Shown here piece after piece: positions 4,917 to 26,510 of a stretch of DNA of 64,000 nt. The translations under genes were made by a program, and so were the position numbers. The DNA is from an uncultured Candidatus Saccharibacteria bacterium (GTDB taxonomy: Bacteria; Patescibacteriota; Saccharimonadia; Saccharimonadales; JAGQNJ01). The DNA lies in NCBI GenBank assembly GCA_964584895.1, contig CAZPAW010000001.1, forward strand, positions 109,343 to 173,342, read 5' to 3'. Each line of letters starts with the position of its first letter. The stretch's first letter is position 1. The notes beneath the pieces were generated by a model. That model did not search any database. It was not told where the DNA came from and saw only the letters and a program-made list of their open reading frames with translations.

Positions 4917-5336
4917 TTACAGATCCGTTGCTTTGGAAAGTACAAAGTTCACTATTATCTGAGCTAGCGCAACAATCACCAGACCGACGATTGCAAACAA
5001 TATCGTATTCTTAGCAGTTGTAACCTTACCGCTGTCACCACCAGATGTAATGTACTGAAAGCCACCAACAATAATCATAATCACGGCTGTTACACCAACG
5101 ACTATTGAGAATATGTTAATTACAGTTGCGATAATATCATTAACAGTTTCTTGGGCATCGGTCGGATCAACATCGCAACTACCATCGGTGACGTCTAGGT
5201 TACCGCCCTTACATAGGTTTGTTTGTATGTCAGCCTTGTCTTGTGCGTAAACGGGTATTGCTACTAATCCTGCGGGTGCGATCATTGCAACGAAGGCTGT
5301 AGTTGTTAGAATTATTCTTTTTATTAGTTTATTCAT
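4917..5336 (-). CDS. pilin-like T4SS protein, paralog 1 (TrbC/VirB2-like two-helix module)
   Basis: 139 aa with a signal peptide (...AIPVYAQ) and a short ectodomain with one Cys pair (CKGGNLDVTDGSC). It ends in the module VTAVIMIIVGGFQYITSGGDSGKVTTAKNTILFAIVGLVIVALAQIIVNFVL, which is shared with the next five ORFs. Confidence 0.65.
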   Translation of the reverse strand: MNKLIKRIILTTTAFVAMIAPAGLVAIPVYAQDKADIQTNLCKGGNLDVTDGSCDVDPTDAQETVNDIIATVINIFSIVVGVTAVIMIIVGGFQYITSGGDSGKVTTAKNTILFAIVGLVIVALAQIIVNFVLSKATDL

Positions 5337-5424
5337 TGTTGCGTTATTTCCTTATTATCTTGATATAAATTTATCATAAGCGTTGTAATACGGCAATAGT
5401 CTAGTTACTGTTTGTATAATTATA

Positions 5425-6015
5425 TTACGGCTCCTTTGTAAGAGCTGACGGAGTTTTATCGTTACCGGCACTATCAACCCTATTAATCACAAATATTACT
5501 ATCACCTGCGCCATTGCAACAACAACTAACCCAACGATCGCCCACAGGATTCCATTTCTTGCACTAGCTACAGCCGTAGTATCACCGTTAGATATTACAA
5601 ACTTAAAGCCGTTAACTATTATCATAATTACAGCTACTACACCGACCAAAATACTGAGCAAATTAATTACTAAGGCAACTACATCGGATACCGACGTCCC
5701 TTCATTAGTATCGCAACTAGACGTCCCACTAGCATCTACGCCCTTACAGACTGCATCAACTAAACTATCTGATGATGATTCGCCAGTTGCATCAGTGGCG
5801 TCATCCGAAGTAGGTTCTTCAGCGGCAGGGTCTTCAGTTGCAGGTTCTTCTTCGGTTGCAGGATCTTTAGTGGCAGGCGTTTCTGCAAAAGGATCTTCCG
5901 TCCTTGGAGAAGGAGAGGTAGTTCTCTGAGCAAACGCTACAGGCCCAAATAAAAACATACCGACAATTACAATAAGAAGTGTTGCTGATATTCGTTTTAG
6001 TGTTAGCATATGCAT
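5425..6015 (-). CDS. pilin-like T4SS protein, paralog 2, with acidic Pro/Glu/Thr-rich spacer
   Basis: 196 aa with a signal peptide (...PVAFAQ) and a ~70-aa PATEEEPATEDPAAEEP-type spacer. It has a Cys pair (CKGVDASGTSSC) and the conserved module VVAVIMIIVNGFKFVISNGDTTAVASARNGILWAIVGLVVVAMAQVIV. Confidence 0.65.
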   Translation of the reverse strand: MHMLTLKRISATLLIVIVGMFLFGPVAFAQRTTSPSPRTEDPFAETPATKDPATEEEPATEDPAAEEPTSDDATDATGESSSDSLVDAVCKGVDASGTSSCDTNEGTSVSDVVALVINLLSILVGVVAVIMIIVNGFKFVISNGDTTAVASARNGILWAIVGLVVVAMAQVIVIFVINRVDSAGNDKTPSALTKEP

Positions 6016-6030
6016 TTTAATAAAATTATA

Positions 6031-6411
6031 CTACAGCCTTCGTAATATAAAGAACACTATCGCTTGGGCTGATAATGCAACCACTATTCCGATAATTGCA
6101 TATAAAATTCCACTTTTGGCAGAGCTAACCGATTCAGCGTTACCGTTAGACATAACAAACTTAAATCCATTAATAATAATCATAATCACCGACGCGACTC
6201 CAACCACCCAACTCATAATAATAGTTATCCGGGTTATTATGCCGGTTGGTCCAAAGATTGGATTGTCGTCATTAGCCTGACAAACAGGCGAGGATGGCTC
6301 TAGCGCACATGGCTTTTCTAGCGGATCTTCTGCATAGGCCAATTCTGGTAATATCGCCAAAGAAGGGACGAATATCAGTAGGGCAACTAAAATTGTTTTC
6401 AGATATCTCAT
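6031..6411 (-). CDS. pilin-like T4SS protein, paralog 3
   Basis: 126 aa with a signal peptide (...ELAYAE) and a Cys pair (CALEPSSPVC). The conserved module is VASVIMIIINGFKFVMSNGNAESVSSAKSGILYAIIGIVVALSAQAIVFFIL. Confidence 0.65.
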   Translation of the reverse strand: MRYLKTILVALLIFVPSLAILPELAYAEDPLEKPCALEPSSPVCQANDDNPIFGPTGIITRITIIMSWVVGVASVIMIIINGFKFVMSNGNAESVSSAKSGILYAIIGIVVALSAQAIVFFILRRL

Positions 6412-6414
6412 AAC

Positions 6415-6732
6415 CTAAAAGGCCCTCCGTAGCACAAAATTCACAATTGCCCCTGCCGACACTGCGACCACCAAACCAATCACCGCATACAATATTGTAT
6501 TCTTAGCTTTGGCAGTCTTTGCTGGGTCGCCGCTAGATAATATGTACTGAAAACCTGCTATCACTATGATTAGTACCGAAATGGCTCCAAGCGTTCCGAA
6601 TACCACGGTTAAAACATTCGCGATAGTCGTAGAGAGACTCGCTTCAGTAATATCCTTATTAGGCAGCTCAACACCTGGATCGTTTATCAATTGAGCAAAT
6701 CTTGATATCCCAAAATATATATAGTTCATCAT
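6415..6732 (-). CDS. pilin-like T4SS protein, paralog 4 (no signal peptide)
   Basis: 105 aa with no N-terminal hydrophobic leader and no Cys. The conserved module is ISVLIIVIAGFQYILSSGDPAKTAKAKNTILYAVIGLVVAVSAGAIVNFVL. Its ATG overlaps the stop of paralog 5 (ATGA). Confidence 0.6.
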   Translation of the reverse strand: MMNYIYFGISRFAQLINDPGVELPNKDITEASLSTTIANVLTVVFGTLGAISVLIIVIAGFQYILSSGDPAKTAKAKNTILYAVIGLVVAVSAGAIVNFVLRRAF

Positions 6733-7124
6733 GTTGATATTGTCGTCCCTATAAATCTAACAACCGCGCTAGCAAGCACCGCAATCACCAGTCCAATTAC
6801 AGCGTTTAAGATAGCGTCTTTAGCGATCTTTGTGTTTTCGGGTTCTCCCTGGCTCAAAACATACCTAAAACCACCATATATTATGTATACAATCGCAAAT
6901 AAACCCGCTAGAAATAACAGTATCTCTGTTACTGCTAGCCCTATGCCTAGTAGCGAATCCATTTTATTTTGGGCAAACTCACCAATCAAGGCACACTCAC
7001 CAGTCGGGAACTCTTGACCATCGAGGTATTTATACCAAGTAGGAATCCCAAATACACTTTGTTGGGGCGTACAAGGATCGCCGCTAGCAGCGAATCTCAA
7101 CATTAATTCAGCGATATGAATCAT
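6729..7124 (-). CDS. pilin-like T4SS protein, paralog 5 (no signal peptide)
   Basis: 131 aa with no leader and a Cys pair (C18...C54). The conserved module is LFAIVYIIYGGFRYVLSQGEPENTKIAKDAILNAVIGLVIAVLASAVVRFI. ATGA overlaps occur at both ends. Confidence 0.6.
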   Translation of the reverse strand: MIHIAELMLRFAASGDPCTPQQSVFGIPTWYKYLDGQEFPTGECALIGEFAQNKMDSLLGIGLAVTEILLFLAGLFAIVYIIYGGFRYVLSQGEPENTKIAKDAILNAVIGLVIAVLASAVVRFIGTTIST

Positions 7125-7750
7125 GAATTAAATATACCCCCTGGAATCAACCACTGCAAAATACCGAATAAGAAAAACCAAGTCACAAGGGCAATCACCG
7201 CATTAATAATTCGTTTTTTGGCTTGAGCAGCGACCTGAGGATTCCCACCAGATGTCGTATATTGTATTCCGGCCATAATAATAACAATCACAACGATTAC
7301 ACCTATCGCTGCGCTCAACAAATTCGCGATGTCCTTAAGTAACTTCGTTATCGGATTATCATTAACGCATGCATCACCAGTACATTCAAATCGCCCCGTC
7401 GTTGTTGCAGAACCAGATGCAGCAGGAGGAGCCTGATTGGCCGCTCGATTGTCTACCGCCACAGCCTGCCATCGAGTACATTCAGGACTATCCAGAGGCT
7501 TTTCTATTAGGATACCGTTTCTTGCCATATAGCATTGATCTTGAAACAAAGAACCACCCCTAACTGGATTCCTATTAGGAAAAAAGAAAGCTGCGGCTGT
7601 AGCAAAAAAATCGTCACATTGTTCGAGAGTAATAACGTCTCCGTCTTTTTTAAAACATTTTGCGGCTTCAGCAGACACAACTCCACTAAAAGAAAAAATC
7701 GAAATGCTAAATAGTGTAGATAAAATCATCGATAATATAAATTTTTTCAT
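7121..7750 (-). CDS. pilin-like T4SS protein, paralog 6, large six-Cys ectodomain
   Basis: 209 aa with a signal peptide (...GVVSAEA) and a ~120-aa ectodomain containing six Cys. The conserved module is VIVVIVIIMAGIQYTTSGGNPQVAAQAKKRIINAVIALVTWFFLFGIL. Confidence 0.6.
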   Translation of the reverse strand: MKKFILSMILSTLFSISIFSFSGVVSAEAAKCFKKDGDVITLEQCDDFFATAAAFFFPNRNPVRGGSLFQDQCYMARNGILIEKPLDSPECTRWQAVAVDNRAANQAPPAASGSATTTGRFECTGDACVNDNPITKLLKDIANLLSAAIGVIVVIVIIMAGIQYTTSGGNPQVAAQAKKRIINAVIALVTWFFLFGILQWLIPGGIFNS

Positions 7751-8334
7751 TCTACCCCCGTCAGAACAAAATCAAATATTGACAATTGACCACTCTCTGT
7801 ACTTTCTAAACGAAATTCTATGGTAACCGTATACTTATTGTCTTTTGATTTACATTCAAAGGATAATAATATGCGGTTATTTTTATCAACTACACCAGAT
7901 TTCGAAGCAACCGGTTGGCAAGATGATAAATTGAGTTTATTAAACAAAATCATACTTTCGCCGACAAAATCCTCCCTACTAATCCCAGCATTAGGGCTAA
8001 ATAATTCGTAAGCTCCATTCGTGTCGTTAATCCCAGCTTTTTCCATAAAAGCAATCACAGCATTTTTTGCATTTGTGGTATCTACATTACTGTTTGCAGT
8101 ATTACTGCTGTTGCTTGATTTTTTTACATTTTTGTTGGCACCCAGCACCATACCAAAGATCAAAACCCCGATTGTCATAATTACCAAAACAATTATCACG
8201 ATAATCTTTTTATCTAGTGATTTTTTTGAAGGCTCTTGCGACGGATCGTTGACATTACGAATAAAATCTAGATCCGAGTTTGTAATTTGTGGTTTTTGAT
8301 TTTGGGGATTCATGTTTTTGTAATTTTGTAACAA
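7747..8334 (-). CDS. membrane-anchored protein of unknown function, first gene of the pilin-like operon
   Basis: 195 aa with a single TM (IIVIIVLVIMTIGVLIFGMVLG), an Asn/Ser-rich linker and a ~110-aa C-terminal domain. Its stop overlaps the start of paralog 6. The ORF-track start is non-ATG; the ATG at 8313 is an alternative start. Confidence 0.5.
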   Translation of the reverse strand: MLQNYKNMNPQNQKPQITNSDLDFIRNVNDPSQEPSKKSLDKKIIVIIVLVIMTIGVLIFGMVLGANKNVKKSSNSSNTANSNVDTTNAKNAVIAFMEKAGINDTNGAYELFSPNAGISREDFVGESMILFNKLNLSSCQPVASKSGVVDKNNRILLSFECKSKDNKYTVTIEFRLESTESGQLSIFDFVLTGVE

Positions 8335-8379
8335 ACATTACTATTTTGATATAGATGATGGTTTAATTATACCGTAAGC

Positions 8380-9492
8380 ATGATGTCGTTCAAAATAAAC
8401 TCATCTCATTATAAACAGTCAAGAATTTTTATAGTTTTCTGTACTTTTCTGTTTACTCTAATAATGCCAATCGCTAGCGTAGTGTTTCTTACGACTCAAA
8501 ACGTATCAGCACGCGATGCTGAACCCGACGATCCACAAAAAGCCGGTTTAATCGTTCATTTAGTACCGGACGATCCTGATGCAACATTAAGAATCGATCG
8601 TCTGGATGAGCTTGATGGTGTTGAGAGCAGATACGAACTGTCTAGGCATGAAGATCATTACGAAGTAACCGACATAGATATCAAAGGTTGGTGCGAAACC
8701 GGCGGAAACGATATATTCACTCAAGAATTTGCAAAGTTTACTCTCGCAATAACTACAAGTAGAGGTGACGAAATAACAAAAACTGTCGACCTGACCAACA
8801 ACTGTGGTGGAGTAGACGAATTTGATGTCAATATAGAAGACGAGATTGAAAACAAGGTTAAATTAACGTTCGTGCTGTCTTTTTTAGATCCAGAAAATAA
8901 TCTCCAAAAAACACCCTTCCCAAAAACTGATTCCGAGGCCGAACTCGTAAGAGTCTCGGTAACTCCAGAAGGAGGCGGTGACCCAATTATTTTTACACCT
9001 ACTAACGTAACTTCTAACGCAAGAGAATATATGAAACGAATAGATCCGGGTAGATACACCTACGAGCTTTTATATAATTCTAGAATAGATTGTCGTGGAA
9101 GAACCAATATTGTCTTTCTTGATACTGGCGAGCTCAACATGACAACAAATAAACGAGTAGTTCGTACTGTGGGGCCAGCTGATTTTTCTATAGAAGCTTG
9201 CGGAGATGGCTTAGTTTTAACGCCACCAGAGCCGGGACCCGAGGGGCCACAGACGTGTGACGAAAACTTTAAATTTACAGGTGGGTTCTTGGTATGTATC
9301 ATCCTCGGAATAATTGATACTACTGTAGACAATATGGTTGATGCTATAGCTGATATGTTGAGTGTTGGTAGGGCAGAGATTAATGATGATGGGTTGAAGA
9401 CTGCTTGGTCTTACTTTAGGAATATAGCTAGTGTATTGCTTGTGGTTATCGGACTAGTTATGATAATAGGACAAGCAGTAAGTAAGGAATAG
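8380..9492 (+). CDS. T4SS-locus surface protein, paralog A (variable ectodomain, conserved C-terminal membrane module)
   Basis: 370 aa with an N-terminal TM/signal (IFIVFCTFLFTLIMPIASVVFL) and a ~270-aa ectodomain of unrecognised family. The C-terminus reads TCDENFKFTGGFLVCIILGIIDTTVDNMVDAIADMLSVGRAEINDDGLKTAWSYFRNIASVLLVVIGLVMIIGQAVSKE. The last 56 codons are nucleotide-identical to those of 9615..10394. Confidence 0.55.
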   Translation: MMSFKINSSHYKQSRIFIVFCTFLFTLIMPIASVVFLTTQNVSARDAEPDDPQKAGLIVHLVPDDPDATLRIDRLDELDGVESRYELSRHEDHYEVTDIDIKGWCETGGNDIFTQEFAKFTLAITTSRGDEITKTVDLTNNCGGVDEFDVNIEDEIENKVKLTFVLSFLDPENNLQKTPFPKTDSEAELVRVSVTPEGGGDPIIFTPTNVTSNAREYMKRIDPGRYTYELLYNSRIDCRGRTNIVFLDTGELNMTTNKRVVRTVGPADFSIEACGDGLVLTPPEPGPEGPQTCDENFKFTGGFLVCIILGIIDTTVDNMVDAIADMLSVGRAEINDDGLKTAWSYFRNIASVLLVVIGLVMIIGQAVSKE

Positions 9493-9513
9493 TGGATGTT
9501 TGATGCATATACA
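9322..9513 (+). repeat. 192-bp perfect direct repeat, copy 1
   Basis: Base-for-base identical to 10224-10415, compared by eye across all four sequence lines. It covers the last 56 sense codons and stop of 8380..9492, a 3-nt spacer and the first 18 nt (ATGTTTGATGCATATACA) of the VirB6-like gene start. Confidence 0.95.
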
Positions 9514-9582
9514 ACTTATATCATGCACAATACGGTCGACCCCAAAATAAATAAAAATAAATCCACTTTAATTAATACCTAA
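9496..9582 (+). pseudogene. orphan duplicated start of the VirB6-like gene (28-codon stub)
   Basis: The ATG at 9496 lies 902 bp upstream of the genuine start at 10398 and shares the first six codons (MFDAYT). It then diverges and stops at 9580-9582 (MFDAYTTYIMHNTVDPKINKNKSTLINT*). Confidence 0.5.
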
Positions 9583-9614
9583 ATTATGTAACATTCTAAT
9601 ATATACTGTAGAGA

Positions 9615-10394
9615 ATGAAGCTAATGCTTAAATACGAATCTTTGAAACGTTTAATAACTACTTTGCTTTTTGTTGCTCTAATTATTTTCTCCTGTACTCA
9701 ACCTATTTTTGCGCAACAATCTACCATTGACGTTGCGAATAGTGCAAGTTTTCAATTTGTCGTACGAGATGCTACCGAACAAGATATTACAGAAATGAAT
9801 GTAAGAAACATTGCTGGTGTTAATGAAGGAGATGAAATACTTGTAATTGAAATGAAAATTGACGGCAACCTATTTCATACTTTCTACACTAATCCCGTCC
9901 TTGGATCCATAGGTTACATAGGTCTTGGAGCAGATTCTTTTGCAAAGATTACTGATGAGAATTTTGATGATAGGGCTTTCACGTTCACTGCAGCTGGAGG
10001 CGAAACAACAGAGATAGAAGTCACTAATGTAAATCGAGCTAGAGAATTCTTTGGAGATCCTGCTAACGGCGGGGACGATAATAGGCGTGTACCTGGAAAT
10101 GACAATCCGATTCCAGCAGACGACGACAATGCCGACGACGAAGAAAGTGAGCAAACATGTGAAGAAAACTTCGACTTCACAGGCGCCTGGATTGTCTGTA
10201 TGGCTCTAGGCATCATAGATCAGACTGTAGACAATATGGTTGATGCTATAGCTGATATGTTGAGTGTTGGTAGGGCAGAGATTAATGATGATGGGTTGAA
10301 GACTGCTTGGTCTTACTTTAGGAATATAGCTAGTGTATTGCTTGTGGTTATCGGACTAGTTATGATAATAGGACAAGCAGTAAGTAAGGAATAG
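9615..10394 (+). CDS. T4SS-locus surface protein, paralog B (different ectodomain, same C-terminal membrane module)
   Basis: 259 aa with a signal/TM (LITTLLFVALIIFSCTQPIFAQQ), an unrelated ~150-aa ectodomain and an acidic D/N-rich linker. This is followed by TCEENFDFTGAWIVCMALGIIDQTVDNMV... and the same C-terminus as paralog A. Confidence 0.55.
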   Translation: MKLMLKYESLKRLITTLLFVALIIFSCTQPIFAQQSTIDVANSASFQFVVRDATEQDITEMNVRNIAGVNEGDEILVIEMKIDGNLFHTFYTNPVLGSIGYIGLGADSFAKITDENFDDRAFTFTAAGGETTEIEVTNVNRAREFFGDPANGGDDNRRVPGNDNPIPADDDNADDEESEQTCEENFDFTGAWIVCMALGIIDQTVDNMVDAIADMLSVGRAEINDDGLKTAWSYFRNIASVLLVVIGLVMIIGQAVSKE

Positions 10395-10415
10395 TGGATG
10401 TTTGATGCATATACA
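10224..10415 (+). repeat. 192-bp perfect direct repeat, copy 2
   Basis: Identical to 9322-9513. It spans the 3' end of 9615..10394 and the first 18 nt of 10398..12200. Confidence 0.95.
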
Positions 10416-12200
10416 GTAAAGAAGGTGCTTCCCAGACTAGCTATTGCTGTGATTCTGATTCAACTCTCGTGGTTTTTGACCACTGGGGCGATCTTTTTAA
10501 CCAATAAAATCGCTTTTGGTATAGGGGGGTTGATGTATGGCGCATTTGGCGGTACCGAACAATTTGCTTTAGAAGAACTATTATCGAATACATCTGACTC
10601 TAGCATCACAACTATCGGGACTACGGTATTATTTACAGTTGTTGGCACGGCTTTTGGTGGAGGCGTAATCGCCATCGCTGGCTTTATCATCATCGCCGTT
10701 TTAGTCGCTTTTTTAAGTTTGGCGCTACGCCGAGCAATACTAATTATGTTGATACTACTGGCACCAATCGCAATTGTCGCCTGGATATTACCAAACACTG
10801 AGCGCTTCTGGAAAATGTGGTGGGACAACTTTACCAAATTGTTAATAATGTTCCCGATGATTATGGCGATGATTGCTGCAGGGCGCATATTTGCACTAAT
10901 CGGTGGCTCTACGGGTGCTGGAGACATTGTTAAGGTCACAATCGTATTAGCAGGATTTTTCATCCCACTATTACTAATACCAAAAACATTTTCGCTTGCC
11001 GGTAGCGCCTTCGCTGCCATTGGTGGGGCGGTCGCCCAACGTGGTGCCGGAGCCCAAAACTGGGCACAAGGTATGGGCAAAAACCGCCAAAAACAAAAAT
11101 GGGCTGAACGAGGCAAAAACTTCACATCTGGAAATATGAAAGAACGAACGGCCATAGGTCGTAGGGTAAACAGGATTGGTGCAGGCTTGGGAGTAGGCGC
11201 ATCCAATAGGTTTGGTCTTGGCAAAAGAGGTAGAGAAGCTGTTAAGATTAAAAAGCAAGTTGCGGAAGGCGAAGCAGCTAAGAACCCAGAATTACAAACT
11301 ATGATGTTGAATAATGATGATGCGACTGCTTTACTAGGTTTAAGTGGAGGTACAAGCGAAGGGATGAGACAAGCACAAGATGAACTTAGAAATCACTGGT
11401 ACGAACAACAACGGGCCAAGGGTATGTCCCACGCTGATGCCCTAGCGGATGCCGACAGAAGGGTCTCCCAAGCTACGGCCGCCGCTCGTGCTGTAGGTGT
11501 AACAAAAACTAACGCAGCAGCAGCCTTCAATGGTCTTGCGCAAAATAAGGCTCGTTCCCTCGGCGCCGGAGCCAACGGTTTAGTTGCAGCTGGCGCTAGT
11601 AGACTAGCCGACGGTAATGACAGTAAGGCCGCTGAGGCGTTGGGAGCCTTTCAATATCATGCAAGGGGTGCTGGTCGCTTTGATCTGGGCGCTGGGACAG
11701 CAACCGAAGGTGGCGAAAAAGCATCCTTGTATCAACTCGCTAACGCCCAACCATCTACAATACAAGGAATGGGTGAAGAAATTATTGATCGAATGGCGAC
11801 AGGAGACCCCGCCGCCCTAGATCAAGCTGCCGTTTTTAGACAAGAGCTAGATGCCATGATTCCCAACGCTACAGGAGCTACTCGTGATGCACTGATTGCC
11901 CAAAGAGATGCATTAGATGCCCACGGAGCGCCCACAGGTGGTGGTCCTGGAATCCTTCAAACGTACATGCAGACTGCTACTGGAAGAATCGACCCAACAA
12001 CAAGATTACCGGTAACTGTAACATTTGATGAAAAGTATAATTCAGCAAGAGCAGCAGCAGATCCAGCATACGCAGCTACATGGTCAGACCCTATAGACAG
12101 AGCAAGAGGCGTCAGACGAGTTACTAGGGCCGAGACGTGGGCTGATGTTGCTCATGCAAAAGCAAGAACATATAGAGCGCCGGAAGAAGAAAATCGTTAA
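10398..12200 (+). CDS. polytopic membrane protein, TrbL/VirB6-like, with long Ala/Gly/Arg-rich soluble tail
   Basis: 600 aa. The first ~210 aa contain five to six hydrophobic helices, and the remaining ~390 aa are soluble and Ala/Gly/Arg/Gln-rich. Its topology and its position between pilin-like genes and VirB3/VirB4-like genes fit VirB6. No diagnostic motif was seen. Confidence 0.5.
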   Translation: MFDAYTVKKVLPRLAIAVILIQLSWFLTTGAIFLTNKIAFGIGGLMYGAFGGTEQFALEELLSNTSDSSITTIGTTVLFTVVGTAFGGGVIAIAGFIIIAVLVAFLSLALRRAILIMLILLAPIAIVAWILPNTERFWKMWWDNFTKLLIMFPMIMAMIAAGRIFALIGGSTGAGDIVKVTIVLAGFFIPLLLIPKTFSLAGSAFAAIGGAVAQRGAGAQNWAQGMGKNRQKQKWAERGKNFTSGNMKERTAIGRRVNRIGAGLGVGASNRFGLGKRGREAVKIKKQVAEGEAAKNPELQTMMLNNDDATALLGLSGGTSEGMRQAQDELRNHWYEQQRAKGMSHADALADADRRVSQATAAARAVGVTKTNAAAAFNGLAQNKARSLGAGANGLVAAGASRLADGNDSKAAEALGAFQYHARGAGRFDLGAGTATEGGEKASLYQLANAQPSTIQGMGEEIIDRMATGDPAALDQAAVFRQELDAMIPNATGATRDALIAQRDALDAHGAPTGGGPGILQTYMQTATGRIDPTTRLPVTVTFDEKYNSARAAADPAYAATWSDPIDRARGVRRVTRAETWADVAHAKARTYRAPEEENR

Positions 12201-12279: not shown

Positions 12280-13689
12280 ATGTCAGAACTTCCTCCACAA
12301 CAAACATCGTCAGAACAGCCTACTCCACCGCAAGGACCTCAAGAGGGGCGCCAAACTATTGGCGATAGAATAGATTCTGCGTCTGAATTTACACATGAAG
12401 CAGGCACACAAGTAGTTGAGCGCATAGCAGATATAACATCAACCACTCAAGAATGGGCTCAAGAAAGAGGCGAAGATATTGTTGGTCGTACAGTCAGTGC
12501 CGGTCAAGCCGCTGCCGGTGGTCTACGTAGAATTATAAGCACCGCTAGAGATAAGGTAAGTGAAAAATGGTCGGATATTGGTGACAGGAGAACCGAATCT
12601 AAGCACGATGCCAGCGTTAGGCGCGAATCAACAGCAAAACGAAAAACCGTAGAATCACTAGATAAATCCGAGAAAGATAAACAAAGATCAAGATTTTACC
12701 GACAATTAGGTGGGCTTGTCATCGCCAAAGTAATTGGAGTAGATAAGGTAGAAGCCCAAGGTATTGCTAGTGTTGTGGGTACTGGAAAAGAAAAGACTGT
12801 AGAGCTCGTACCCCCAAGCAGCAAATTTGAAGAATTCATCGAGGATAGAGCCTATAGACGCACAAGAAAGCTTGGCGAGCAACGAGCACACAAAAGTAAA
12901 TCAGGTAAAGGGTCAAATCAAACAGCGGGTATTAAACCATGGTTAAGACAACGAGAAAGACTAGCCCAAGTTAGAGAGCAATATCGCAGTGGCGAAATTA
13001 GTAGAGAAGAGATGGAAAGGAAACAACTTCATATAAGAGCTACCAAATCAAGTGGTTTCGTTACAACAACCAACCGGTATGGCGAAAGAGTCGTGCAACA
13101 AGTCGCAAAACCTGGCACTACACAAAGAAACAGAACCAGGGTAGTCGGAGTTGAAAAATTTGTAACTAAAAAAGTAGGTCAAGCCCTTCAAGAGGCTGGC
13201 AGAATATATAGTCGGGATAGCGACAAAGCACGTGAAAAAGGCCGAAAGCTACGAGAGAAAGGCGCTGAGGCAAAAAGAAAATCTTATCTTCATGCCAAAG
13301 AAGCAAAGGAACGAGCTAAACGTAAAAGAGATAAAGAAATAAGCAAGGTATGGGATGACGCTCATCTAGAAGATAGAGAGCGCTTCCCCGATGAAGACAT
13401 CAGTAAAGTATGGGATGATGCTCATCGTGAAGACGAAAGATTTGATGCAGACCAGGCTAGAAAAAAAGCAGCAGCCAAAGCAAAAATTCCACGCCGAACA
13501 GTTAAAACAAGTCTAAATAAAAGTGCTAAAACTGAACAAAAAATTGATGAAACAGGTTATACGTATGTACAAGATAGCTCTGGTAAAACCCATAAGGTTC
13601 CTATGCCGCCAAAAGGTAGCAATCCTGCAAAGTGGCGTGCTTATGAAAATGAGTTAACTAGAATAAATCCAAACAGAATAATAGTTTAG
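12280..13689 (+). CDS. hyper-charged soluble protein of unknown function within the T4SS-like operon
   Basis: 469 aa with no hydrophobic segment and dominated by K/R/E/D/Q. The motif ISKVWDDAH(L/R)ED occurs twice, 19 residues apart. Confidence 0.55.
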   Translation: MSELPPQQTSSEQPTPPQGPQEGRQTIGDRIDSASEFTHEAGTQVVERIADITSTTQEWAQERGEDIVGRTVSAGQAAAGGLRRIISTARDKVSEKWSDIGDRRTESKHDASVRRESTAKRKTVESLDKSEKDKQRSRFYRQLGGLVIAKVIGVDKVEAQGIASVVGTGKEKTVELVPPSSKFEEFIEDRAYRRTRKLGEQRAHKSKSGKGSNQTAGIKPWLRQRERLAQVREQYRSGEISREEMERKQLHIRATKSSGFVTTTNRYGERVVQQVAKPGTTQRNRTRVVGVEKFVTKKVGQALQEAGRIYSRDSDKAREKGRKLREKGAEAKRKSYLHAKEAKERAKRKRDKEISKVWDDAHLEDRERFPDEDISKVWDDAHREDERFDADQARKKAAAKAKIPRRTVKTSLNKSAKTEQKIDETGYTYVQDSSGKTHKVPMPPKGSNPAKWRAYENELTRINPNRIIV

Positions 13690-13754: not shown

Positions 13755-14660
13755 ATGTCAGAGTATAAAGTAATTCAGGATATCGAGGCCGAAGACAAAC
13801 TTCTAGGTCCACTTACTCTGCGTCAATTCATATATGCGTCGATTGTTGTAGCAATCGGAGCGATTGGTTTCTTTTTTATAAGTAACGACGTCTGGTTTCT
13901 TGCTATCCCACTTATTCCGCCATTCATATTTTTTGGTCTTCTTGCCGCACCATTTGGACGCGACCAATCATCAGAGATCTGGCTACTGGGAAAAGTGCGG
14001 TATATGATTTTTTCTAAAAAGCGTATTTGGGATCAAGAGGGAATCGAACACCTGGTAACAATCACGGTGCCAAAAAAAGTTGAAAAACATTATTCTGATG
14101 GGTTAAGTGGGTCAGAAGTAAAAAGTCGACTAAAAACGCTTGCAAATACCATGGATACACGTGGCTGGATAGTAAAAAATGTAACGCCTGGAAATAGGAG
14201 TTTTGTAAATCAAGATAATCCAGATAGACTACTTGAAATCCAAAAAACTCCAGAAGACGAAGCATTAGCAACAATCAAACCAGCTTCTGACGTACTAAAT
14301 ACATCTGTCGTCAACCCAATTGCTGCAAATTTGTCTAGTATGGTCGACGAAGCCGAACTGCAACATCGACAAGAATTATTGGCGAATATGCGCGATATTG
14401 CCGACCAATACAACAACGCCCCAGCAAAACCTCCAGCAAAAATCACGACAGCCAGACCTAGTCCAATCATCACGCCAACTGCAAAGTTGCCTAAAAACAC
14501 GCCAATTACTCAACCAAAACCAGCAATGACACCACCCCCCAATCCTGTTATAATTGACGGTGTTAATAAGCGTAAGCTTTCTTCAGAGATTGATATAAAA
14601 CAAAAATCCGAAGAAAGTGACGGTAATAGCAATGAGGAAGTTGTCATATCTCTTCATTAG
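13755..14660 (+). CDS. PrgI/VirB3-like T4SS membrane protein with Pro-rich C-terminal extension
   Basis: 301 aa. The N-terminus reads IQDIEAEDKLLGPLTLRQFIYASIVVAIGAIGFFF... followed by a second helix; an LTxRQ motif plus a two-helix hairpin is typical of PrgI-family VirB3 analogues. It lies just upstream of VirB4. The C-terminal part is Pro/Thr/Lys-rich. Confidence 0.6.
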   Translation: MSEYKVIQDIEAEDKLLGPLTLRQFIYASIVVAIGAIGFFFISNDVWFLAIPLIPPFIFFGLLAAPFGRDQSSEIWLLGKVRYMIFSKKRIWDQEGIEHLVTITVPKKVEKHYSDGLSGSEVKSRLKTLANTMDTRGWIVKNVTPGNRSFVNQDNPDRLLEIQKTPEDEALATIKPASDVLNTSVVNPIAANLSSMVDEAELQHRQELLANMRDIADQYNNAPAKPPAKITTARPSPIITPTAKLPKNTPITQPKPAMTPPPNPVIIDGVNKRKLSSEIDIKQKSEESDGNSNEEVVISLH

Positions 14661-14803
14661 TAACACCGTAATCGCCTATTGGTGGGCCCGCTAATGAATC
14701 CTGAAAAAACTCAATATTATTTACACACTAGACAAAATACTATCAACAGTATTGATCGTTGCGCGCCTTACCACAGTCAAAAAATAAAAGAGATTACCGC
14801 GGG

Positions 14804-15688
14804 ATGAACCCTAACTCAAATCAACAACCAACCCAGCAACAACCGCCACAACCGGCTCCACAACCACAGGCCGTTACGGTACCGCCTGCTCAAAATAATC
14901 AACCGCAACCACCACAACAGCAGCAACAATCAACCCAACAGCCGACTAAACCAAAAATTAACCCCGCTAGCACTCAAAACATGCTTCAGATTGCAGAGAT
15001 CAGGGACGGCATTGTCATCATGAATGATGGTTCATTTAGGTGCGTAGTTATGGCAAAAAGTATCAACTTTGATCTGATGAGCCCACAAGAGCAAGAAGCA
15101 GTCGAGGCTGGTTATCAAGCATTTCTAAACTCGCTATATTTTGATATTCAGATTTTTATTCGATCACAAAAAGTTGATATTAGACCTTATTTGGATAAAC
15201 TGGCGAAAACTAGAAGCGAAGAAGACAACATGTTGCTGGGATTGCTAATGGATGATTATATTGATTTTATAACTGACTTATCCACAGAATCAAACATCAT
15301 GGATAAATATTTTTATATTGTCATACCCTTCTTTTCTAATGTATCTGTTAAACGAGCAATTACCCAAAGTAAAACTTTCTTTACAGGTTTGTCAGGAATA
15401 TTTAACAGATCAAAAGAGCCTCATGTAACCGTTACAGAACAAGTATTGGCCGAGGCAAAGGACGAACTCCGCAACAGAGTGCAGGCTGTTGTTGGAGGAT
15501 TAGAGCAGTGTGGCGTTAAAGGTGTGCCGTTGGATACCCAAGAATTAATCGAACTGTACTATGACTTTTATAATCCTGATACCGCAACTAGACAGCAATT
15601 ACATAATTTTGACGATGTGTCTGCGCCGGTAATAACAAAAGGTCAAGGTCAGGCCCCAAAACCTAGCATAGATCAGGGGGTAATGTAG
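14804..15688 (+). CDS. Gln/Pro-rich protein with VirB4-N-terminal-like domain
   Basis: The ATG at 14804 is preferred over the ORF-track TTG at 14759. A ~70-aa Q/P-rich region precedes LQIAEIRDGIVIMNDGSFRCVVMAKSINFDLMSPQEQEAVEAGYQAFLNSLYFDIQIFIRSQKVD. This resembles my recollection of the start of Gram-positive VirB4/TrsE-type proteins. The stop lies 1 nt before the VirB4 ATG. Confidence 0.45.
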   Translation: MNPNSNQQPTQQQPPQPAPQPQAVTVPPAQNNQPQPPQQQQQSTQQPTKPKINPASTQNMLQIAEIRDGIVIMNDGSFRCVVMAKSINFDLMSPQEQEAVEAGYQAFLNSLYFDIQIFIRSQKVDIRPYLDKLAKTRSEEDNMLLGLLMDDYIDFITDLSTESNIMDKYFYIVIPFFSNVSVKRAITQSKTFFTGLSGIFNRSKEPHVTVTEQVLAEAKDELRNRVQAVVGGLEQCGVKGVPLDTQELIELYYDFYNPDTATRQQLHNFDDVSAPVITKGQGQAPKPSIDQGVM

Positions 15689-15689
15689 T

Positions 15690-17618
15690 ATGGGACTTTT
15701 TGGTGGCAAAAAGGCCATCACTGATCCAAAAGAACTCGCTGAAGCCCAACGTCGACGCGAAGAACAAGAGGTTAGTGAAATATATCGCAAGGGTGTCACA
15801 GCATTGCGAGACTTCATTGCACCAAGCTCGATCGAACTCAGCAGTACTCACTTTCAGATTGGAAGTCGATTTGCCCGCACCTATTATGTTTTTGGATATC
15901 CACGCTCACTAACTACCGGCTGGACAAGTGGGCTGATTAACCTCGACGAGATAATTGATATTTCTATGTTTATCTATCCAGTAGAGAGCCGAATCGTACT
16001 AGAAAGTCTTCGAAAAAAAGTATCTCAAATGGAGGCAGGTATCCAAATCGATGAAGAAAAAGGTCGGGTACGTGATCCAGGCAAGCAGGCATCGATTATT
16101 GATGCTGAAGAAATCCGTGACAAGCTCCAAGTCGGCGAAGAAAGATTCTTTAGAATCGGTTTTTATTTTACTCTGTACGCAAACAGCTTGGACGAGCTAG
16201 AATATGTCGCCCATAAAGTTGAGTCAATGCTCGGGCAACAACTTGTCTATTCAAAACCAGCAACCTCACAGCAAGAACAGGCATTGGCTAGCACTGTTCC
16301 GCAGTTTACTGACCAACTAGAGATTAGGCGCAATATGAGCACGGGCGCCGCAAGCACTAGCTTTCCGTTTACTAGCGCCGACCTTAGCCAAGACGATGGC
16401 GTGTTGTATGGGATCAATATGCATAATTCTGGATTAGTAATTTTTGACAGATTTAGTTTAGAAAATGGCAATGCTGTTGTCTTTGCAAAATCGGGTGCAG
16501 GTAAATCTTTTGCTGTTAAGCTCGAGGCGCTTCGTTCAATGATGCTTGGCACCGAGATAGTCATCGTTGATCCAGAAAACGAATACCAGAGAATGTGCGA
16601 GGCGGTTGCTGGAGCATATGTAAGGCTAAGCCTTAACTCTAACACCAGAATCAATCCATTTGATCTACCAAAAGTAATCGATACTGACGAAGCCGATAAT
16701 GCACTAAGGAGTAATCTGATAACTCTACATGGCTTGCTACGATTGATGATGGGTGGTGCTCAGGCTCAAATGCTTGCTTCTCAGGCTAGCGGCGGAGTGT
16801 CTACTCCTGCCTTGTCTCCGGTCGAGGAAGCAGATCTTGATTCTGCGTTGATAGAAACATACGCTAAAGCCGGCATAACCCAAGACCCTCTTACTCACAA
16901 TTCGATCCCTCCGACTATCACAGACCTATATGACACCCTACTTCACATGGGCGGCACAGGACCACAACTAGCTCAACGACTGCGAAAATATACAAGCGGT
17001 ACCTTTGCCGGAATATTCTCTCAACAATCTAATATCGAGATGAAGAATCAAATGGTGGTATTTAATGTCCGTGATCTAGAGGATGAGTTGCGTCCAGTAG
17101 CTATGTATATTGTCCTTAATCACATATGGAATATTACAAAATCAGACAAAAAGAAAAGAATCTTAATCATTGATGAAGCTTGGCAAATCATGCGTTATGA
17201 AGATTCGGCTAACTTTATGTTTTCTTTAGCCAAGCGCGCCCGAAAGTATAACCTAGGTATCACCACAATTAGCCAAGACGTAGAAGATTTTATTGGGTCA
17301 AGGCTTGGTCGAGCAATCGTTGCCAACGCCTCATTACAGTTACTGCTAAAGCAATCGCCATCTGCTGTTGATATGTTAACCGATGTCTTTAAGCTAACAG
17401 AAAATGAATCAAAACGATTAAGCCAGTTCCCGATTGGTCAAGGGTTATTTTTTGCCGGCCAAAATCACGTACATATACAAGTTACAGCTAGCGACACAGA
17501 AACCAGTCTAATAACTACCAACCCAGAGCAAATCGAAGAGTTAGAACAAAAAGGCGTAATTAAAGAAGGACAGGGCAATATTAATTTGGGGCCCATAACA
17601 ACCCCGCCTGCTATATAA
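15690..17618 (+). CDS. virB4: VirB4/TrsE-family type IV secretion ATPase
   Basis: 642 aa with Walker A VVFAKSGAGKSFAV and Walker B KRILIIDEAWQIM. Downstream pattern: ARKYNLGITTISQDVEDF...LLLKQSP. Confidence 0.85.
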   Translation: MGLFGGKKAITDPKELAEAQRRREEQEVSEIYRKGVTALRDFIAPSSIELSSTHFQIGSRFARTYYVFGYPRSLTTGWTSGLINLDEIIDISMFIYPVESRIVLESLRKKVSQMEAGIQIDEEKGRVRDPGKQASIIDAEEIRDKLQVGEERFFRIGFYFTLYANSLDELEYVAHKVESMLGQQLVYSKPATSQQEQALASTVPQFTDQLEIRRNMSTGAASTSFPFTSADLSQDDGVLYGINMHNSGLVIFDRFSLENGNAVVFAKSGAGKSFAVKLEALRSMMLGTEIVIVDPENEYQRMCEAVAGAYVRLSLNSNTRINPFDLPKVIDTDEADNALRSNLITLHGLLRLMMGGAQAQMLASQASGGVSTPALSPVEEADLDSALIETYAKAGITQDPLTHNSIPPTITDLYDTLLHMGGTGPQLAQRLRKYTSGTFAGIFSQQSNIEMKNQMVVFNVRDLEDELRPVAMYIVLNHIWNITKSDKKKRILIIDEAWQIMRYEDSANFMFSLAKRARKYNLGITTISQDVEDFIGSRLGRAIVANASLQLLLKQSPSAVDMLTDVFKLTENESKRLSQFPIGQGLFFAGQNHVHIQVTASDTETSLITTNPEQIEELEQKGVIKEGQGNINLGPITTPPAI

Positions 17619-22349: not shown

Positions 22350-23678
22350 ATGAATAAAAAGAAAGTTGTCATAATTGCATCTATATCACTAATTATTATC
22401 TATTTGATAATAATTATCGTTACTTTTTTAATTAGAAATAATAAACCCGAGGACAGCAATAAGTTGATGGTCAGTGATATTGTTGCAACTAATATTGCTA
22501 ATACCGACAATTTTTCTTCGCTAGATACAAATGATTTAGGTTTCTTCACTGGATCTTCGAGTGCAACCTTAAATCTAGCGCAGAATAATAATTTTTTGAA
22601 AACCAAATTACTTACCGCTGACTTCCCCTTGTATAACGTAGATAAGGTGTCCGGTATAGATGACAAGTTATTAGTTAGATCGTACTACTATCCACCTAAT
22701 TCTAACTTATTAAACAAATACATAAGTGGCGGTAAGCCAACGGCTCATAAAAAACAAGCATGGTTTATCCTCACCAAAAAGAATCTTAAATCTGCATTCT
22801 CACCAGAATACATAAATGTAGTTGACGCGACACTAACTCCGGATGGAATTGCGTTTTTAGAGTCTTCTGGCAATAAAATTAATCTAGTTCTTAAAGATAA
22901 TACAGGCGTATATCGTTCGATCGGCAACGATATATCTGCCAAAAAAATTATTGGTGTCCTAGGCACAAAAATATATTTATCTGACTATAGTGGATCGATT
23001 TATGAACAAAACGGATCTACATACAAAAAAATAATCAGCAACGCAACTGATGTCACCTTAGATCATGATACTAGCAAGTTAGTGTATTCGGACATAAACG
23101 ATTCAAGTTCTGGTGAAGAAGGAGGTTTTGTTGAAAACAACAAACAAGGTGCCTCTAGTCATAAAATTAATATCCTTGATTTAACTACAAATTCGAACAC
23201 AATTTATGAGCCCCCGCAAGGATATTCTCATACTGATAGAGGGAATATCGTGACAATAAATAAAATCACTCAGCCAGATAAAATCGAAATTTATAATCTT
23301 GGCACTGGCGAGACATTATCGGTTAACATTGATCAAGCAGCATCAAAAATTGTCGACCCCATATCAAAGGTAGTTGTGGCCTCGAAAAACCCTCTAATAT
23401 TATCTGCAATTACCAATAATAATCGATTAGTTATCTATTCCGATAAAGCTATCGTTGAAAACATCGCAAGCTATAAATTACCGAAAATACCTGTCAGACA
23501 AGGTCAATACTCCTTCGATTATAGTATTGTTCAAGGTACTGTAGTGATGGTTGCGGATAAAAGTAATACCAATATCATAGCTAATACTAGTAAAATTTTA
23601 AAAAATACCTGCGAATGTGATTTAAATCAACTGAACAAAGTTTGGACAGTTATTCAAAGAACAGAGGGATCACTTTAG
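22350..23678 (+). CDS. TM-anchored extracytoplasmic protein, possible beta-propeller (TolB/PD40-like repeats), last gene of the T4SS-like operon
   Basis: 442 aa with an N-terminal TM (VVIIASISLIIIYLIIIIVTFLI). Weak recurring segments (TPDGIAFLESSGNKINLVLKD, SKLVYSDINDSS) are present. The 3' end overlaps recF by 9 bp (convergent). Confidence 0.35.
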   Translation: MNKKKVVIIASISLIIIYLIIIIVTFLIRNNKPEDSNKLMVSDIVATNIANTDNFSSLDTNDLGFFTGSSSATLNLAQNNNFLKTKLLTADFPLYNVDKVSGIDDKLLVRSYYYPPNSNLLNKYISGGKPTAHKKQAWFILTKKNLKSAFSPEYINVVDATLTPDGIAFLESSGNKINLVLKDNTGVYRSIGNDISAKKIIGVLGTKIYLSDYSGSIYEQNGSTYKKIISNATDVTLDHDTSKLVYSDINDSSSGEEGGFVENNKQGASSHKINILDLTTNSNTIYEPPQGYSHTDRGNIVTINKITQPDKIEIYNLGTGETLSVNIDQAASKIVDPISKVVVASKNPLILSAITNNNRLVIYSDKAIVENIASYKLPKIPVRQGQYSFDYSIVQGTVVMVADKSNTNIIANTSKILKNTCECDLNQLNKVWTVIQRTEGSL

Positions 23679-24731
23679 ATTTATTAATTGGGTTTTTTGA
23701 ATGTAAGATTTGTCGATTATATCGGCGTCAGTTGTGGTGATAAGTGTTTGGTTAGTACTTAAAAATCCAGTTAATAATTTTCGTCGTTTGCCATCGAGTT
23801 CACTGAAAACATCGTCGAATAGCAGGATTGGTTTTTGTCCTGTTTTTCTCTCAAGTAGCGAAGTTTCGCATTTTTTAAGTGCAAGAATTGCGGTGCGGGT
23901 TTCACCTCTTGATGCAAAACTACGCACATCATTATTATTAAGCTCTATTAAAAGGTCGTCTCTGTGTGGCCCAACTGAAGTGAATCCTCTGGATAAATCT
24001 TTCTCTAGGTTTTGTTCTAGTGCATGCAATAATCGAGTTGCGTAGTTTGATGAACCTAAGATTTTTGATTGATATCGCAGAACTAACCTGTATTTGTCAC
24101 CAGCAATCTCTGTGTAGTTCTCGGCCAGTGTTTTATTTAGCTCGTCGATAAGTTTTAGACGTCGATCAACAATATTCTCGGCGAACTCTGCCAATCTAAT
24201 GTTCCACGCAAATACCGACTGCTGAACGTTTTGACGACCCATTTTTAGCAGTCTATTGCGTTGCATAAGAGCCCTTTTATAGCTATTAATTATTAAACTA
24301 TTGTCTGGATAAATTTGACTAGCAAGGTTATCGATAAAATTACGACGCTCTTCTGGGGAGGTTACGAGCTCGTATAATTGGTTTGGTTCAAAAAGTACCA
24401 CCGGAATTGATTCGTTAGCTGTCGGTCGTTTTTTTACTACACCATCAATCTCGAAGTCTTTTTTAACGCGACCATTATCTTTAGTTAACTTGAGAGTCCG
24501 TTGTCGATTGTCGTCCGTTGTAGCATCAATCCTAGTCCAGCTAGCGCCGGTCCGGATATTGTGGTGATCTGATGAACGAAACGCTCCTATACTACAGACA
24601 TAATAAACTGCTTCTAGTAAATTAGTCTTTCCACTGGCATTTGGTCCCACAATAATATTAGTACCGGATTCAAACTCAAAAGCACTATCCTCATACGACC
24701 TAAAATTCTGAAGCCTAATACTAGTAATCAT
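23670..24731 (-). CDS. recF: DNA replication and repair protein RecF
   Basis: 353 aa: MITSIRLQNFRSY...GPNASGKTNLLEA (Walker A)...ILLFDDVFSELD (Walker B). It lies downstream of dnaN. Confidence 0.9.
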   Translation of the reverse strand: MITSIRLQNFRSYEDSAFEFESGTNIIVGPNASGKTNLLEAVYYVCSIGAFRSSDHHNIRTGASWTRIDATTDDNRQRTLKLTKDNGRVKKDFEIDGVVKKRPTANESIPVVLFEPNQLYELVTSPEERRNFIDNLASQIYPDNSLIINSYKRALMQRNRLLKMGRQNVQQSVFAWNIRLAEFAENIVDRRLKLIDELNKTLAENYTEIAGDKYRLVLRYQSKILGSSNYATRLLHALEQNLEKDLSRGFTSVGPHRDDLLIELNNNDVRSFASRGETRTAILALKKCETSLLERKTGQKPILLFDDVFSELDGKRRKLLTGFLSTNQTLITTTDADIIDKSYIQKTQLINLK

Positions 24732-24768
24732 AAATTAGCTCAAAGCTTAGAGCCCTCAGCTGAGAGCT
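24732..24768. repeat. imperfect 37-bp direct repeat, copy 1 (flanks the four-helix-bundle gene)
   Basis: Read on the minus strand, AGCTCTCAGCTGAGGGCTCTAAGCTTTGAGCTAATTT matches AGCTCAGAGCCGAGGGCTAATAGCTGAAAGCTAATCG (25131-25167) at 26 of 37 positions without gaps. Confidence 0.5.
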
Positions 24769-25105
24769 TTTTTATGAACCCGCTTAATAATTTTGATACA
24801 TCTTCGGTTTTCATGATTAATTCGGATTTCGTTGATTCATTAATATAACTTAATCTCTCGGCGATAATTAACATCGACTCGACTTCGGCTGCCGAGCCTT
24901 TCGAAATCGATAGGTAGTTCCTTAGTCCTTTGTCGCTTCGTTTTGCGTAACCCTCAGCTATATTATTCATTATTGATATAGACGCCCTTCTTATTTGATT
25001 CCGAAAACTATAGTCTTCAATTTTTGCGAATTGCTTATAAATCTCAAAAGTTAGATCATTAGCTTTTTGCCAAACAATTAAGTCCTTAAAAGATTGTGTC
25101 GACAT
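24740..25105 (-). CDS. four-helix-bundle protein (family typically encoded in 23S rRNA intervening sequences)
   Basis: 121 aa: FKDLIVWQKANDLTFEIYK...FRNQIRRASISIMNNIAEGYAKRSDKGLRNYLSISKGSAAEVESMLIIAERLSYI. This is the characteristic pattern of that family. Confidence 0.75.
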   Translation of the reverse strand: MSTQSFKDLIVWQKANDLTFEIYKQFAKIEDYSFRNQIRRASISIMNNIAEGYAKRSDKGLRNYLSISKGSAAEVESMLIIAERLSYINESTKSELIMKTEDVSKLLSGFIKKLSAEGSKL

Positions 25106-25130
25106 ATACTATATTTTAACAGCCTGTTTG

Positions 25131-25167
25131 CGATTAGCTTTCAGCTATTAGCCCTCGGCTCTGAGCT
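25131..25167. repeat. imperfect 37-bp direct repeat, copy 2
   Basis: See 24732-24768. This copy sits immediately after the dnaN stop codon (25169-25171). Confidence 0.5.
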
Positions 25168-25168
25168 C

Positions 25169-26496: not shown

Positions 26497-26510
26497 CCAA
26501 AAAAGTATAA

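Follow-up and report, generated by a model that had tools for sequence, protein, structure and literature searches.

Probable recurrent gene conversion between tandem split-VirB6 paralogs in a type IV secretion locus of Candidatus Saccharibacteria

The 64,000-nucleotide stretch of Candidatus Saccharibacteria DNA analysed here (the window; its genome is called W) carries a chromosomal, Gram-positive-type (MPF-FATA-like) type IV secretion system (T4SS) of a candidate phyla radiation (CPR) genome, in which two adjacent genes, A and B, lie directly upstream of a gene for a VirB6-like protein. A and B encode different ectodomains on a common C-terminal module, and their 3' ends belong to a perfect 192-bp direct repeat. 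We read them as tandem paralogs of a split VirB6 whose anchor module has been homogenised recurrently by gene conversion, accompanied by divergence or replacement of the ectodomains, and we give this reading as a whole a probability of about 75%. The locus is a clean textbook example of partial gene conversion, in that position-specific and genome-specific phylogenies lie only a few codons apart. The loci of relatives, annotated as Candidatus Saccharibacteria, are numbered L001-L026, and the suffixes _A and _B denote the gene position. The features at the centre of the analysis are the following.

8380..9492, plus strand: gene A, 370 amino acids, with an N-terminal hydrophobic signal/anchor, an acidic type I ectodomain and the 80-amino-acid C-terminal module.
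9250..9321, plus strand: unconverted 5' module part of A, QTCDENFKFTGGFLVCIILGIIDT, with the position-A signature 'GGF'; its nearest relative is L001_A (77%), not W_B.
9322..9513, plus strand: repeat copy 1, comprising the last 56 codons and stop of A, 'tgg' and an 18-nt relic of the VirB6-like start, exactly identical to copy 2.
9496..9582, plus strand: orphan 28-codon stub open reading frame (ORF), MFDAYTTYIMHNTVDPKINKNKSTLINT, opening with the duplicated VirB6-like start (MFDAYT...).
9514..9614, plus strand: unique spacer from copy 1 to gene B, comprising the remainder of the stub and the region upstream of B.
9615..10394, plus strand: gene B, 259 amino acids, with a signal/anchor, an acidic type III ectodomain and the same 80-amino-acid module; 3 nt separate its stop from the VirB6-like start.
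10152..10223, plus strand: unconverted 5' module part of B, QTCEENFDFTGAWIVCMALGIIDQ, with the position-B signature 'GAW'; its nearest relative is L001_B (80%).
10224..10415, plus strand: repeat copy 2, comprising the last 56 codons and stop of B, 'tgg' and the first 18 nt of the real VirB6-like gene.
10398..12200, plus strand: gene for the VirB6-like (TrbL_3) polytopic membrane protein, 600 amino acids, without the N-terminal ectodomain and module that are present in fused homologs.

The two copies of the repeat are identical at 192 of 192 positions, are offset by 902 bp and cannot be extended by a single base at either the left or the right edge. In both, the last 56 sense codons and the TAG stop are followed by 'tgg' and then by ATGTTTGATGCATATACA; in copy 2 this string forms the beginning of the VirB6-like ORF, and in copy 1 it opens the 28-codon orphan ORF. 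On the 5' side of the repeat, 72 alignable nt (9250-9321 versus 10152-10223) contain 26 mismatches, an identity of 64%; this stretch holds GIID, encoded as ggaataattgat versus ggcatcatagat, together with the motif TC(D/E)ENF(K/D)FTG, and the proportion of differing synonymous sites (pS) between A and B of W in the 5' module part is 0.86. Assuming uniform placement, the probability that all 26 mismatches fall in the first 72 of the 264 alignable nt is 4e-17. Further upstream, the ectodomains of A and B in W share no similarity detectable by BLASTP. A sequence-only reading of the same DNA had described the repeat with its spacing and content (56 codons and stop, 3-nt spacer, VirB6-like start), the stub at 9496-9582, the synonymous differences in GIID, and the unrelated ectodomains with their common motif; all its coordinates hold, the stub is present in the ORF list, and the remaining descriptions were confirmed. 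The spacer has no similarity to the sequence beyond copy 2, and neither a third copy of the repeat nor any other repeat of at least 40 nt occurs in the window. The left edge of the repeat (9321-9345, TACTGTAGACAATATGGTTGATGCT) resembles the region around the start of B (9604-9628, TACTGTAGAGAATGAAGCTAATGCT), with 19 of 25 positions (76%) in common; although it falls exactly on the tract boundary, this resemblance is probably due to chance.

The comparison with relatives places this repeat in a wider pattern. Over the 171 nt of the 3' module part, both copies could be compared in six genomes (W, L001, L002, L003, L004 and L005), and in six of six the nearest neighbour of a copy is the paralog in its own genome, with 84-100% identity within and 64-92% identity between genomes. 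The values within genomes are 98% in W, 88% in L001, 99% in L002, 84% in L003, 100% in L004 and 96% in L005; for W the figure is not 100% because the exact repeat starts one codon (3 nt) inside the 171-nt segment. The exact tracts of A/B identity differ in length and in their right ends, which are counted from the last base of the stop codon.

W: exact A/B tract of 192 nt, ending at +21.
L002: exact A/B tract of 174 nt, ending at +3.
L004: exact A/B tract of 222 nt, ending at +9.
L005: exact A/B tract of 160 nt, ending at -2.
L001: exact A/B tract of 86 nt, ending at -4.
L003: exact A/B tract of 29 nt, ending at -13.

In addition, A and B of L007 are identical at 127 of 127 nt up to the contig end, and L020 carries an 89-nt identical patch inside the module, diverged on both sides, which has the form of a classic conversion patch. 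The module sequences vary between genomes at synonymous as well as non-synonymous sites, and in the flanking T4SS genes of the four genomes compared (W, L001, L002 and L005) pS lies at 0.6-0.88, so that synonymous sites are saturated. We conclude that recurrent, independent and partial gene conversion is the only simple account of the A/B tracts; the 3' module part (about 90-220 nt) has, on this comparison, evidently been homogenised repeatedly and independently in each genome. Gene conversion had been one of the two events considered in the sequence-only reading, and it is borne out by the in-genome nearest neighbours, by tract boundaries that differ between genomes and by the saturation of synonymous sites elsewhere. 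Across the genomes compared, the 3' module part groups by genome and the 5' part mostly by position. The 192-bp repeat would then be the most recent conversion tract in W, its right end marking the limit of old duplicated homology (the relic of the VirB6 start) and its left end at 9322 being a likely real tract endpoint. Homogenisation probably took place by intrachromosomal, homology-dependent conversion of the RecA/RecFOR type between copies 902 bp apart; among the genes of this machinery, recF alone was seen in the window. A separate observation concerns L001, where the 5' ends of A and B (upstream region and signal peptide; 8954-9096 versus 9939-10081) are 90% identical over 143 nt and the ectodomains 60% identical at the protein level, as if the cassette had a second homogenised tract at its opposite end.

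Identity of the 3' ends might instead reflect purifying selection at the nucleotide level, without recombination, on an element such as a ribosome-binding site or coupling signal, an internal promoter or an mRNA structure. Over the last 34 module codons, pS between genomes is only 0.02-0.26, as compared with 0.36-0.78 over the first 35 VirB6 codons, 0.6-1.0 in the 5' module part and 0.6-0.88 elsewhere. The low-pS stretch corresponds to the last 102 nt of the modules (9388-9489 and 10290-10391), compared with L001, L002, L005 and L007. Within the module end, GGACTAGTTATGATAATAGG is shared by most of the clade, with one change in L004 and a larger number in L020, and the codons of the terminal SKE contain AAGGA(A/G) just upstream of the ATG of the next gene, of which it is the predicted ribosome-binding site. 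Nucleotide-level constraint, with this site inside, or exchange between strains possibly adds similarity to the last 34 codons. Constraint alone is insufficient, however, because identity within genomes, complete in the exact tracts of W, L002 and L004, is higher than every value between genomes, and because the tract of W also covers codons -56 to -35, which vary between genomes (pS 0.17-0.72, pN at most 0.25). In L020, moreover, the transmembrane region has diverged while the patch upstream of it is identical. The RNA fold of the repeat has a z of -1.5, which is not significant, there is no Rfam match, and a promoter and terminator scan of 7600-10800 returned no enrichment over shuffles. We therefore consider selection without recombination unlikely.

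A further alternative is a recent tandem duplication or, as the second event considered in the sequence-only reading, the insertion of a 902-bp unit by recombination. The unit would comprise the spacer, the B ectodomain and the module, and the 192 bp would be identical because they are young. The abrupt ends of the repeat, which includes 18 nt of the downstream gene, do resemble a duplication junction, and the B ectodomains vary among relatives, so B cassettes were replaced at some time. Two module genes directly upstream of the VirB6-like gene are found, however, at the same place in seven further genomes of the clade and thus, with W, in eight (L001, with L008 of the same species; L002, with L009, which is the same contig; L003; L004; L005; L007; L020; in L007 and L020 the upstream module gene is cut by the contig end), and more distant genomes have one module gene (L010-L015, L021-L026) or a fusion. 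The first 22 module codons carry the signature 'GGF/GSF/GNF' at position A and 'GAW' at position B. Accordingly, nearest neighbours over the 5' 66 nt of the module are found position-wise in most of the clade (W_A with L001_A, 77%; W_B with L001_B, 80%; L005_B with L007_B, 83%), L003 and L004 being exceptions, and the high pS between A and B within W points in the same direction. Because the 5' module part is position-specific across genomes, the copies appear to have separated before most of these genomes did, and the A/B duplication evidently predates the divergence of this Saccharibacteria clade.

The same holds for the duplicated start of the VirB6-like gene. In L007 an identical relic with an identical boundary follows the upstream module gene (ATGTTTGATGCATATAC), even though the B ectodomains of L007 and W are only 53% identical, and decayed relics are present in L005 (TGGATGTTTGA) and L004 (GGTGGATGT). 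Since the relic recurs in these three genomes, we conclude that the original duplication most probably took in the junction and the first VirB6 codons. The duplicated start noted in the sequence-only reading is thus present, not as a new event but as an inherited relic, and the recent insertion of a 902-bp unit is largely refuted and was rejected as highly improbable.

What A and B are follows from homologs in which the same module is part of a longer protein. The module is made up of a Cys-x12-Cys motif, a partly hydrophobic (juxtamembrane) helix, a loop, one strong transmembrane helix (IASVLLVVIGLVMIIGQAV) and the tail SKE. In three more distant Saccharibacteria, the ectodomain and module read straight into the VirB6-like part, with ...LVMVIATALNTQ running directly into MFDAYTVKRALPRM... 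(MFDAYTVK...).

L016:4693-8862, L017:256-3036 and L018:1932-3899: fused loci.
P0048-P0167: fused proteins.

With the full 926-amino-acid fused protein P0048 as query, 280 homologs were found; among those listed, 120 of 120 (697-1333 amino acids, all with TrbL_3) contain the module, nearly always internally and upstream of the TrbL_3 part. A phmmer search with the 80-amino-acid module against 1.84 billion representatives matched 303 cluster representatives, stand-alone as well as fused, and among the best 150 of the 303 about 120 are stand-alone, with the module at the extreme C-terminus, and about 30 are fused. The module is thus fused in frame to a VirB6/TrbL_3 core in many other Patescibacteria. 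Because of this fusion, we conclude that A and B are alternative, split-off N-terminal pieces of VirB6, each made of ectodomain plus anchor and arranged as tandem paralogs; by the same token, the separate pieces are likely to dock on the VirB6 core. In the AlphaFold2 (AF2) model of P0048, the predicted local distance difference test (pLDDT) is 87-97 over the module helices and the first TrbL_3 helix or helices. The 'surface proteins' of the sequence-only reading are accordingly upheld as far as an ectodomain on a membrane anchor is concerned, and are more specifically split N-terminal VirB6 pieces, as the three fused loci and the 120 homologs indicate.

The VirB6-like protein of the window has at least five hydrophobic segments, genes for PrgI, TraC-like and VirB4 proteins lie downstream, and orthologs that are 81-87% identical carry PF19590 TrbL_3 in precomputed tables. 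The protein of gene B is 100% identical to P0001 of a public collection, a protein on a 402-kb NCBI contig; an exact protein look-up of A, B and P0001 in the assembly index returned no record. Neither Pfam nor NCBIfam returned a family for A or B. A minor pilin of the VirB5/TrbJ type was considered for A and B and rejected, as there is no profile match, the C-terminal transmembrane helix is strong and the likeness is positional only. Some N-terminal ectodomains of the fused proteins of about 700-1330 amino acids carry Peptidase_S74 (PF13884, a tail-fibre chaperone) or CAP (PF00188).

The ectodomains have a history of their own. Type I is found in W_A, L002_A and L005_A (78-81% identical) and, more distantly, in L004_A, type II in L001_A, L001_B and L003_A, and type III in W_B and L007_B (53% identical); L002_B, L003_B, L004_B and L005_B are each unique. 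The 47 stand-alone module homologs fall into 16 ectodomain clusters unrelated by BLAST. W, L001 and L002 are 95-96% identical in VirB4 and 81-88% in VirB6, yet they differ in ectodomain type at A, B or both, and such differences between close relatives indicate that cassettes have probably been replaced. Position B, with module copies on both flanks, varies more often than position A, and the two copies could serve as homology arms for the replacement. The ectodomains of L001_B and L003_A are 76% identical, the VirB6 proteins of the two loci 42%, with no sharp breakpoint in the DNA; this suggests lateral cassette movement, which we do not claim as shown. L006 (1-3142) and L005 (427-3565), contigs from different samples, are 99.6% identical over 2 kb; L005 has the order A, spacer, B, and in L006 the A ectodomain and the repeat are joined to VirB6 with the B-type junction TAGTATG. 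This case is ambiguous between a real one-cassette recombinant and an assembler shortcut and is not counted as evidence. As to the deletion, swapping or amplification of cassettes envisaged from the sequence alone, swapping is thus supported by unrelated ectodomains at 95-96% VirB4 identity, deletion has the one ambiguous case of L006 versus L005, and amplification was not seen; the further repeat copies or silent cassettes that had been suggested were looked for in the 64 kb, and none were found. A metagenome scan with the conserved 20-mer GTTATGATAATAGGRCAAGC gave 0 matches, and a protein-pattern scan of the same metagenome collection yielded one distant locus, L019, and no population-level variants.

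The layout of a conserved anchor and a variable ectodomain, the turnover of cassettes among relatives and the one possible deletion variant would also be expected of programmed, high-frequency antigenic or phase variation of the pilE/pilS, vlsE or msp2 type, with the repeat as recombination site and silent cassettes as donors. Both copies are, however, complete genes with their own starts and signal sequences, neither additional copies nor promoterless cassettes occur in the 64 kb, the window has no recombinase next to the locus, and the type I orthologs are stable, being 78-81% identical between genomes whose synonymous sites are saturated, at a dN/dS of about 0.06. We regard a programmed system as very unlikely.

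That the repeat is an assembly artefact, either falsely duplicated or homogenised by consensus from slightly different copies, is the least credible of the alternatives: the relatives from the genome scan are short-read metagenome-assembled genomes, and the contigs of L005 and L007 break exactly at the repeat and L006 skips the B cassette, so assemblers struggle here, but the same architecture was assembled independently in eight genomes from different samples and pipelines, truly different paralogs were kept distinct (L001 at 88%, L003 at 84%, and L020), and in W each copy has unique flanks, intact ORFs and the expected junctions.

Beside the low synonymous divergence of the last 34 module codons, several points weigh against our reading of recurrent conversion in a split VirB6. 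The perfect identity and the copy number rest on assembled sequence, not on reads. The contig of L006 has a coverage of 0.64, and an assembler that cut across the 160-nt repeat would produce the same picture. No three-cassette or silent-cassette arrangement was found in the compared loci or the window. The gene fusion and the pLDDT values, not computed contacts, are what suggests contact between the module and the VirB6 core. The AF2 model of gene A (10-sequence alignment) is unusable, with a mean pLDDT of 42.6. A Foldseek search of the PDB with the P0048 model has chains of R388 TrwI/VirB6 as top matches, at E 0.6-2 and a TM-score of 0.31-0.36 (normalised to target length), which is not significant, and the local Pfam copy gives no significant TrbL match for either the VirB6-like protein of the window or P0048. 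On the last point, precomputed tables list PF19590.5 for close homologs and the local Pfam-A finds no TrbL_3 match, so the resources seemingly differ in version or content.

On the reading of tandem split-VirB6 paralogs, A and B would each be a secreted variable ectodomain on a conserved module, forming a stand-alone part of a split VirB6-like T4SS channel protein. Conversion would keep both ectodomain subunits fitted to the single VirB6 core and would also preserve the signal for coupling to the gene that follows. Lying on both sides of the B ectodomain, the conserved copies may in turn act as arms for cassette replacement or loss, for example after natural transformation, and the outcome would be a diversification of the surface-exposed part of the T4SS. 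Natural transformation, with integration of the DNA by homologous recombination, is documented for Saccharibacteria (PMC10633639), and Southlakia epibionticum ML1, the only Saccharibacterium tested, cannot grow epibiotically on its host without the T4SS (PMC10633639, PMC12857230). As a tentative extension, which we consider possible at best, the variable VirB6 ectodomain might be the host-recognition determinant of the essential Saccharibacterial T4SS, here split and duplicated, with the module repeat as a built-in recombination anchor by which naturally competent cells could swap cassettes between strains, or lose or acquire them, and so shift host range, and with conversion keeping the core compatible.

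The closest analogue, in terms of process, appears to be the Trw T4SS of Bartonella. As far as PMC2883598 describes it, this system lacks a coupling protein and serves host-specific adhesion, and trwL (VirB2) and trwJ-I-H (VirB5-VirB6-VirB7) are tandemly amplified, with diversifying selection and concerted evolution (Nystedt et al. 2008, cited in PMC2883598). Judged by that account, the two would be alike in that exposed T4SS components, next to or including VirB6, are tandemly duplicated in the operon, diversify and evolve in concert, and a multi-copy array of VirB2-like pilins is also present at the locus described here. They would differ in that the unit duplicated in W is the split-off N-terminal part of VirB6, with ectodomain and anchor, rather than VirB5 or VirB2 together with a complete VirB6, in that the system is a monoderm T4SS of MPF-FATA type in Patescibacteria, and in that there are two copies only, with conversion limited to about 90-220 nt at the 3' end; A and B are not homologs of TrwJ or TrwL. 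Extended VirB6 proteins are known from the rvh system of Rickettsiales, with extensions described as central or C-proximal (PMC12857230). These paralog families likewise combine a polytopic VirB6 core with large extra hydrophilic domains, in several variants per T4SS; in contrast, the extra domain in the Saccharibacterial locus is N-terminal, extracellular and often a separate gene, and that piece alone is duplicated.

Outside secretion channels, babA and babB of Helicobacter pylori are outer-membrane adhesin paralogs with conserved ends and a variable middle, which undergo partial RecA-dependent conversion and whose variants can be swapped or deleted; paralogs of this type are dispersed in the genome, and the formation of chimeras has been observed in real time. 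Here, too, shared segments are homogenised and exposed domains differ, but the copies are adjacent and the evidence is on the evolutionary scale only. In the orphan-module arrays of rhs and cdiA-CT, the conserved junction is a recombination anchor and displaced copies retain a fragment of the neighbouring gene, much like the VirB6-start stub in W; there, the variable part is a toxic C-terminus paired with an immunity gene, whereas here the variation lies in an N-terminal ectodomain and neither gene is disrupted.

No adhesins were detected in the T4SS clusters of Patescibacteria in a recent survey (PMC12102498), and genes of the A/B type are not described in PMC12102498 and PMC12857230, T4SS papers that include Patescibacteria. 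The locus offers a concrete candidate for host contact, namely a hypervariable extracellular domain on VirB6, either fused or in the form of one or two separate subunits, for which 47 relatives show no fewer than 16 unrelated ectodomain types. Through its recurrent conversion, the anchor would stand out as the constant part, as opposed to the part that is free to vary. It is predicted that A and B dock on the VirB6 core via the module, that an ectodomain swap alters host specificity and that the repeats mediate cassette exchange.

The surrounding T4SS genes follow on the plus strand in the order A, B, VirB6-like, a gene of unknown function, PrgI/VirB3-like, TraC/TrsD-like, VirB4, a VanY-domain protein and an amidase/GDSL/SLT protein, and the TrbL_3 gene has the same synteny among the relatives L001-L004.

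4917..7750, minus strand: six divergent T4SS_pilin (VirB2-like) genes with PF18895 matches, transcribed away from A.
13755..17618, plus strand: genes for PrgI/VirB3-like, TraC-like/TrsD-like and VirB4 ATPase proteins of the same T4SS operon, syntenic in L001-L004.

The pilin array is syntenic in L001-L004 and L021, and its largest pilin (209 amino acids) is 33-57% identical among relatives, as compared with 86-96% for VirB4. The system is placed on the chromosome because dnaA, dnaN and recF are nearby: recF, dnaN and dnaA occupy 23670-27932, at a distance of about 6 kb from VirB4, on its downstream side, and of about 1.3 kb from the final amidase/GDSL/SLT gene of the cluster. Origin-proximal chromosomal T4SS have already been described for Patescibacteria (PMC12102498). 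Downstream of VirB6, the ORF at 12280-13689 (lysine/arginine-rich, 469 amino acids), which is absent from L003 and L020, contains a 44-nt direct repeat within 13330-13433, with copies 82% identical and 60 nt apart, encoding DKEISKVWDDAHLED and DEDISKVWDDAHRED. Finally, 30220-62873 holds a large cell-envelope polysaccharide cluster with several GT2/GT4 glycosyltransferases, a DegT aminotransferase, a pyruvyl transferase, UDP-glucose dehydrogenase, phosphoglucomutase and a Bac_transf priming transferase.

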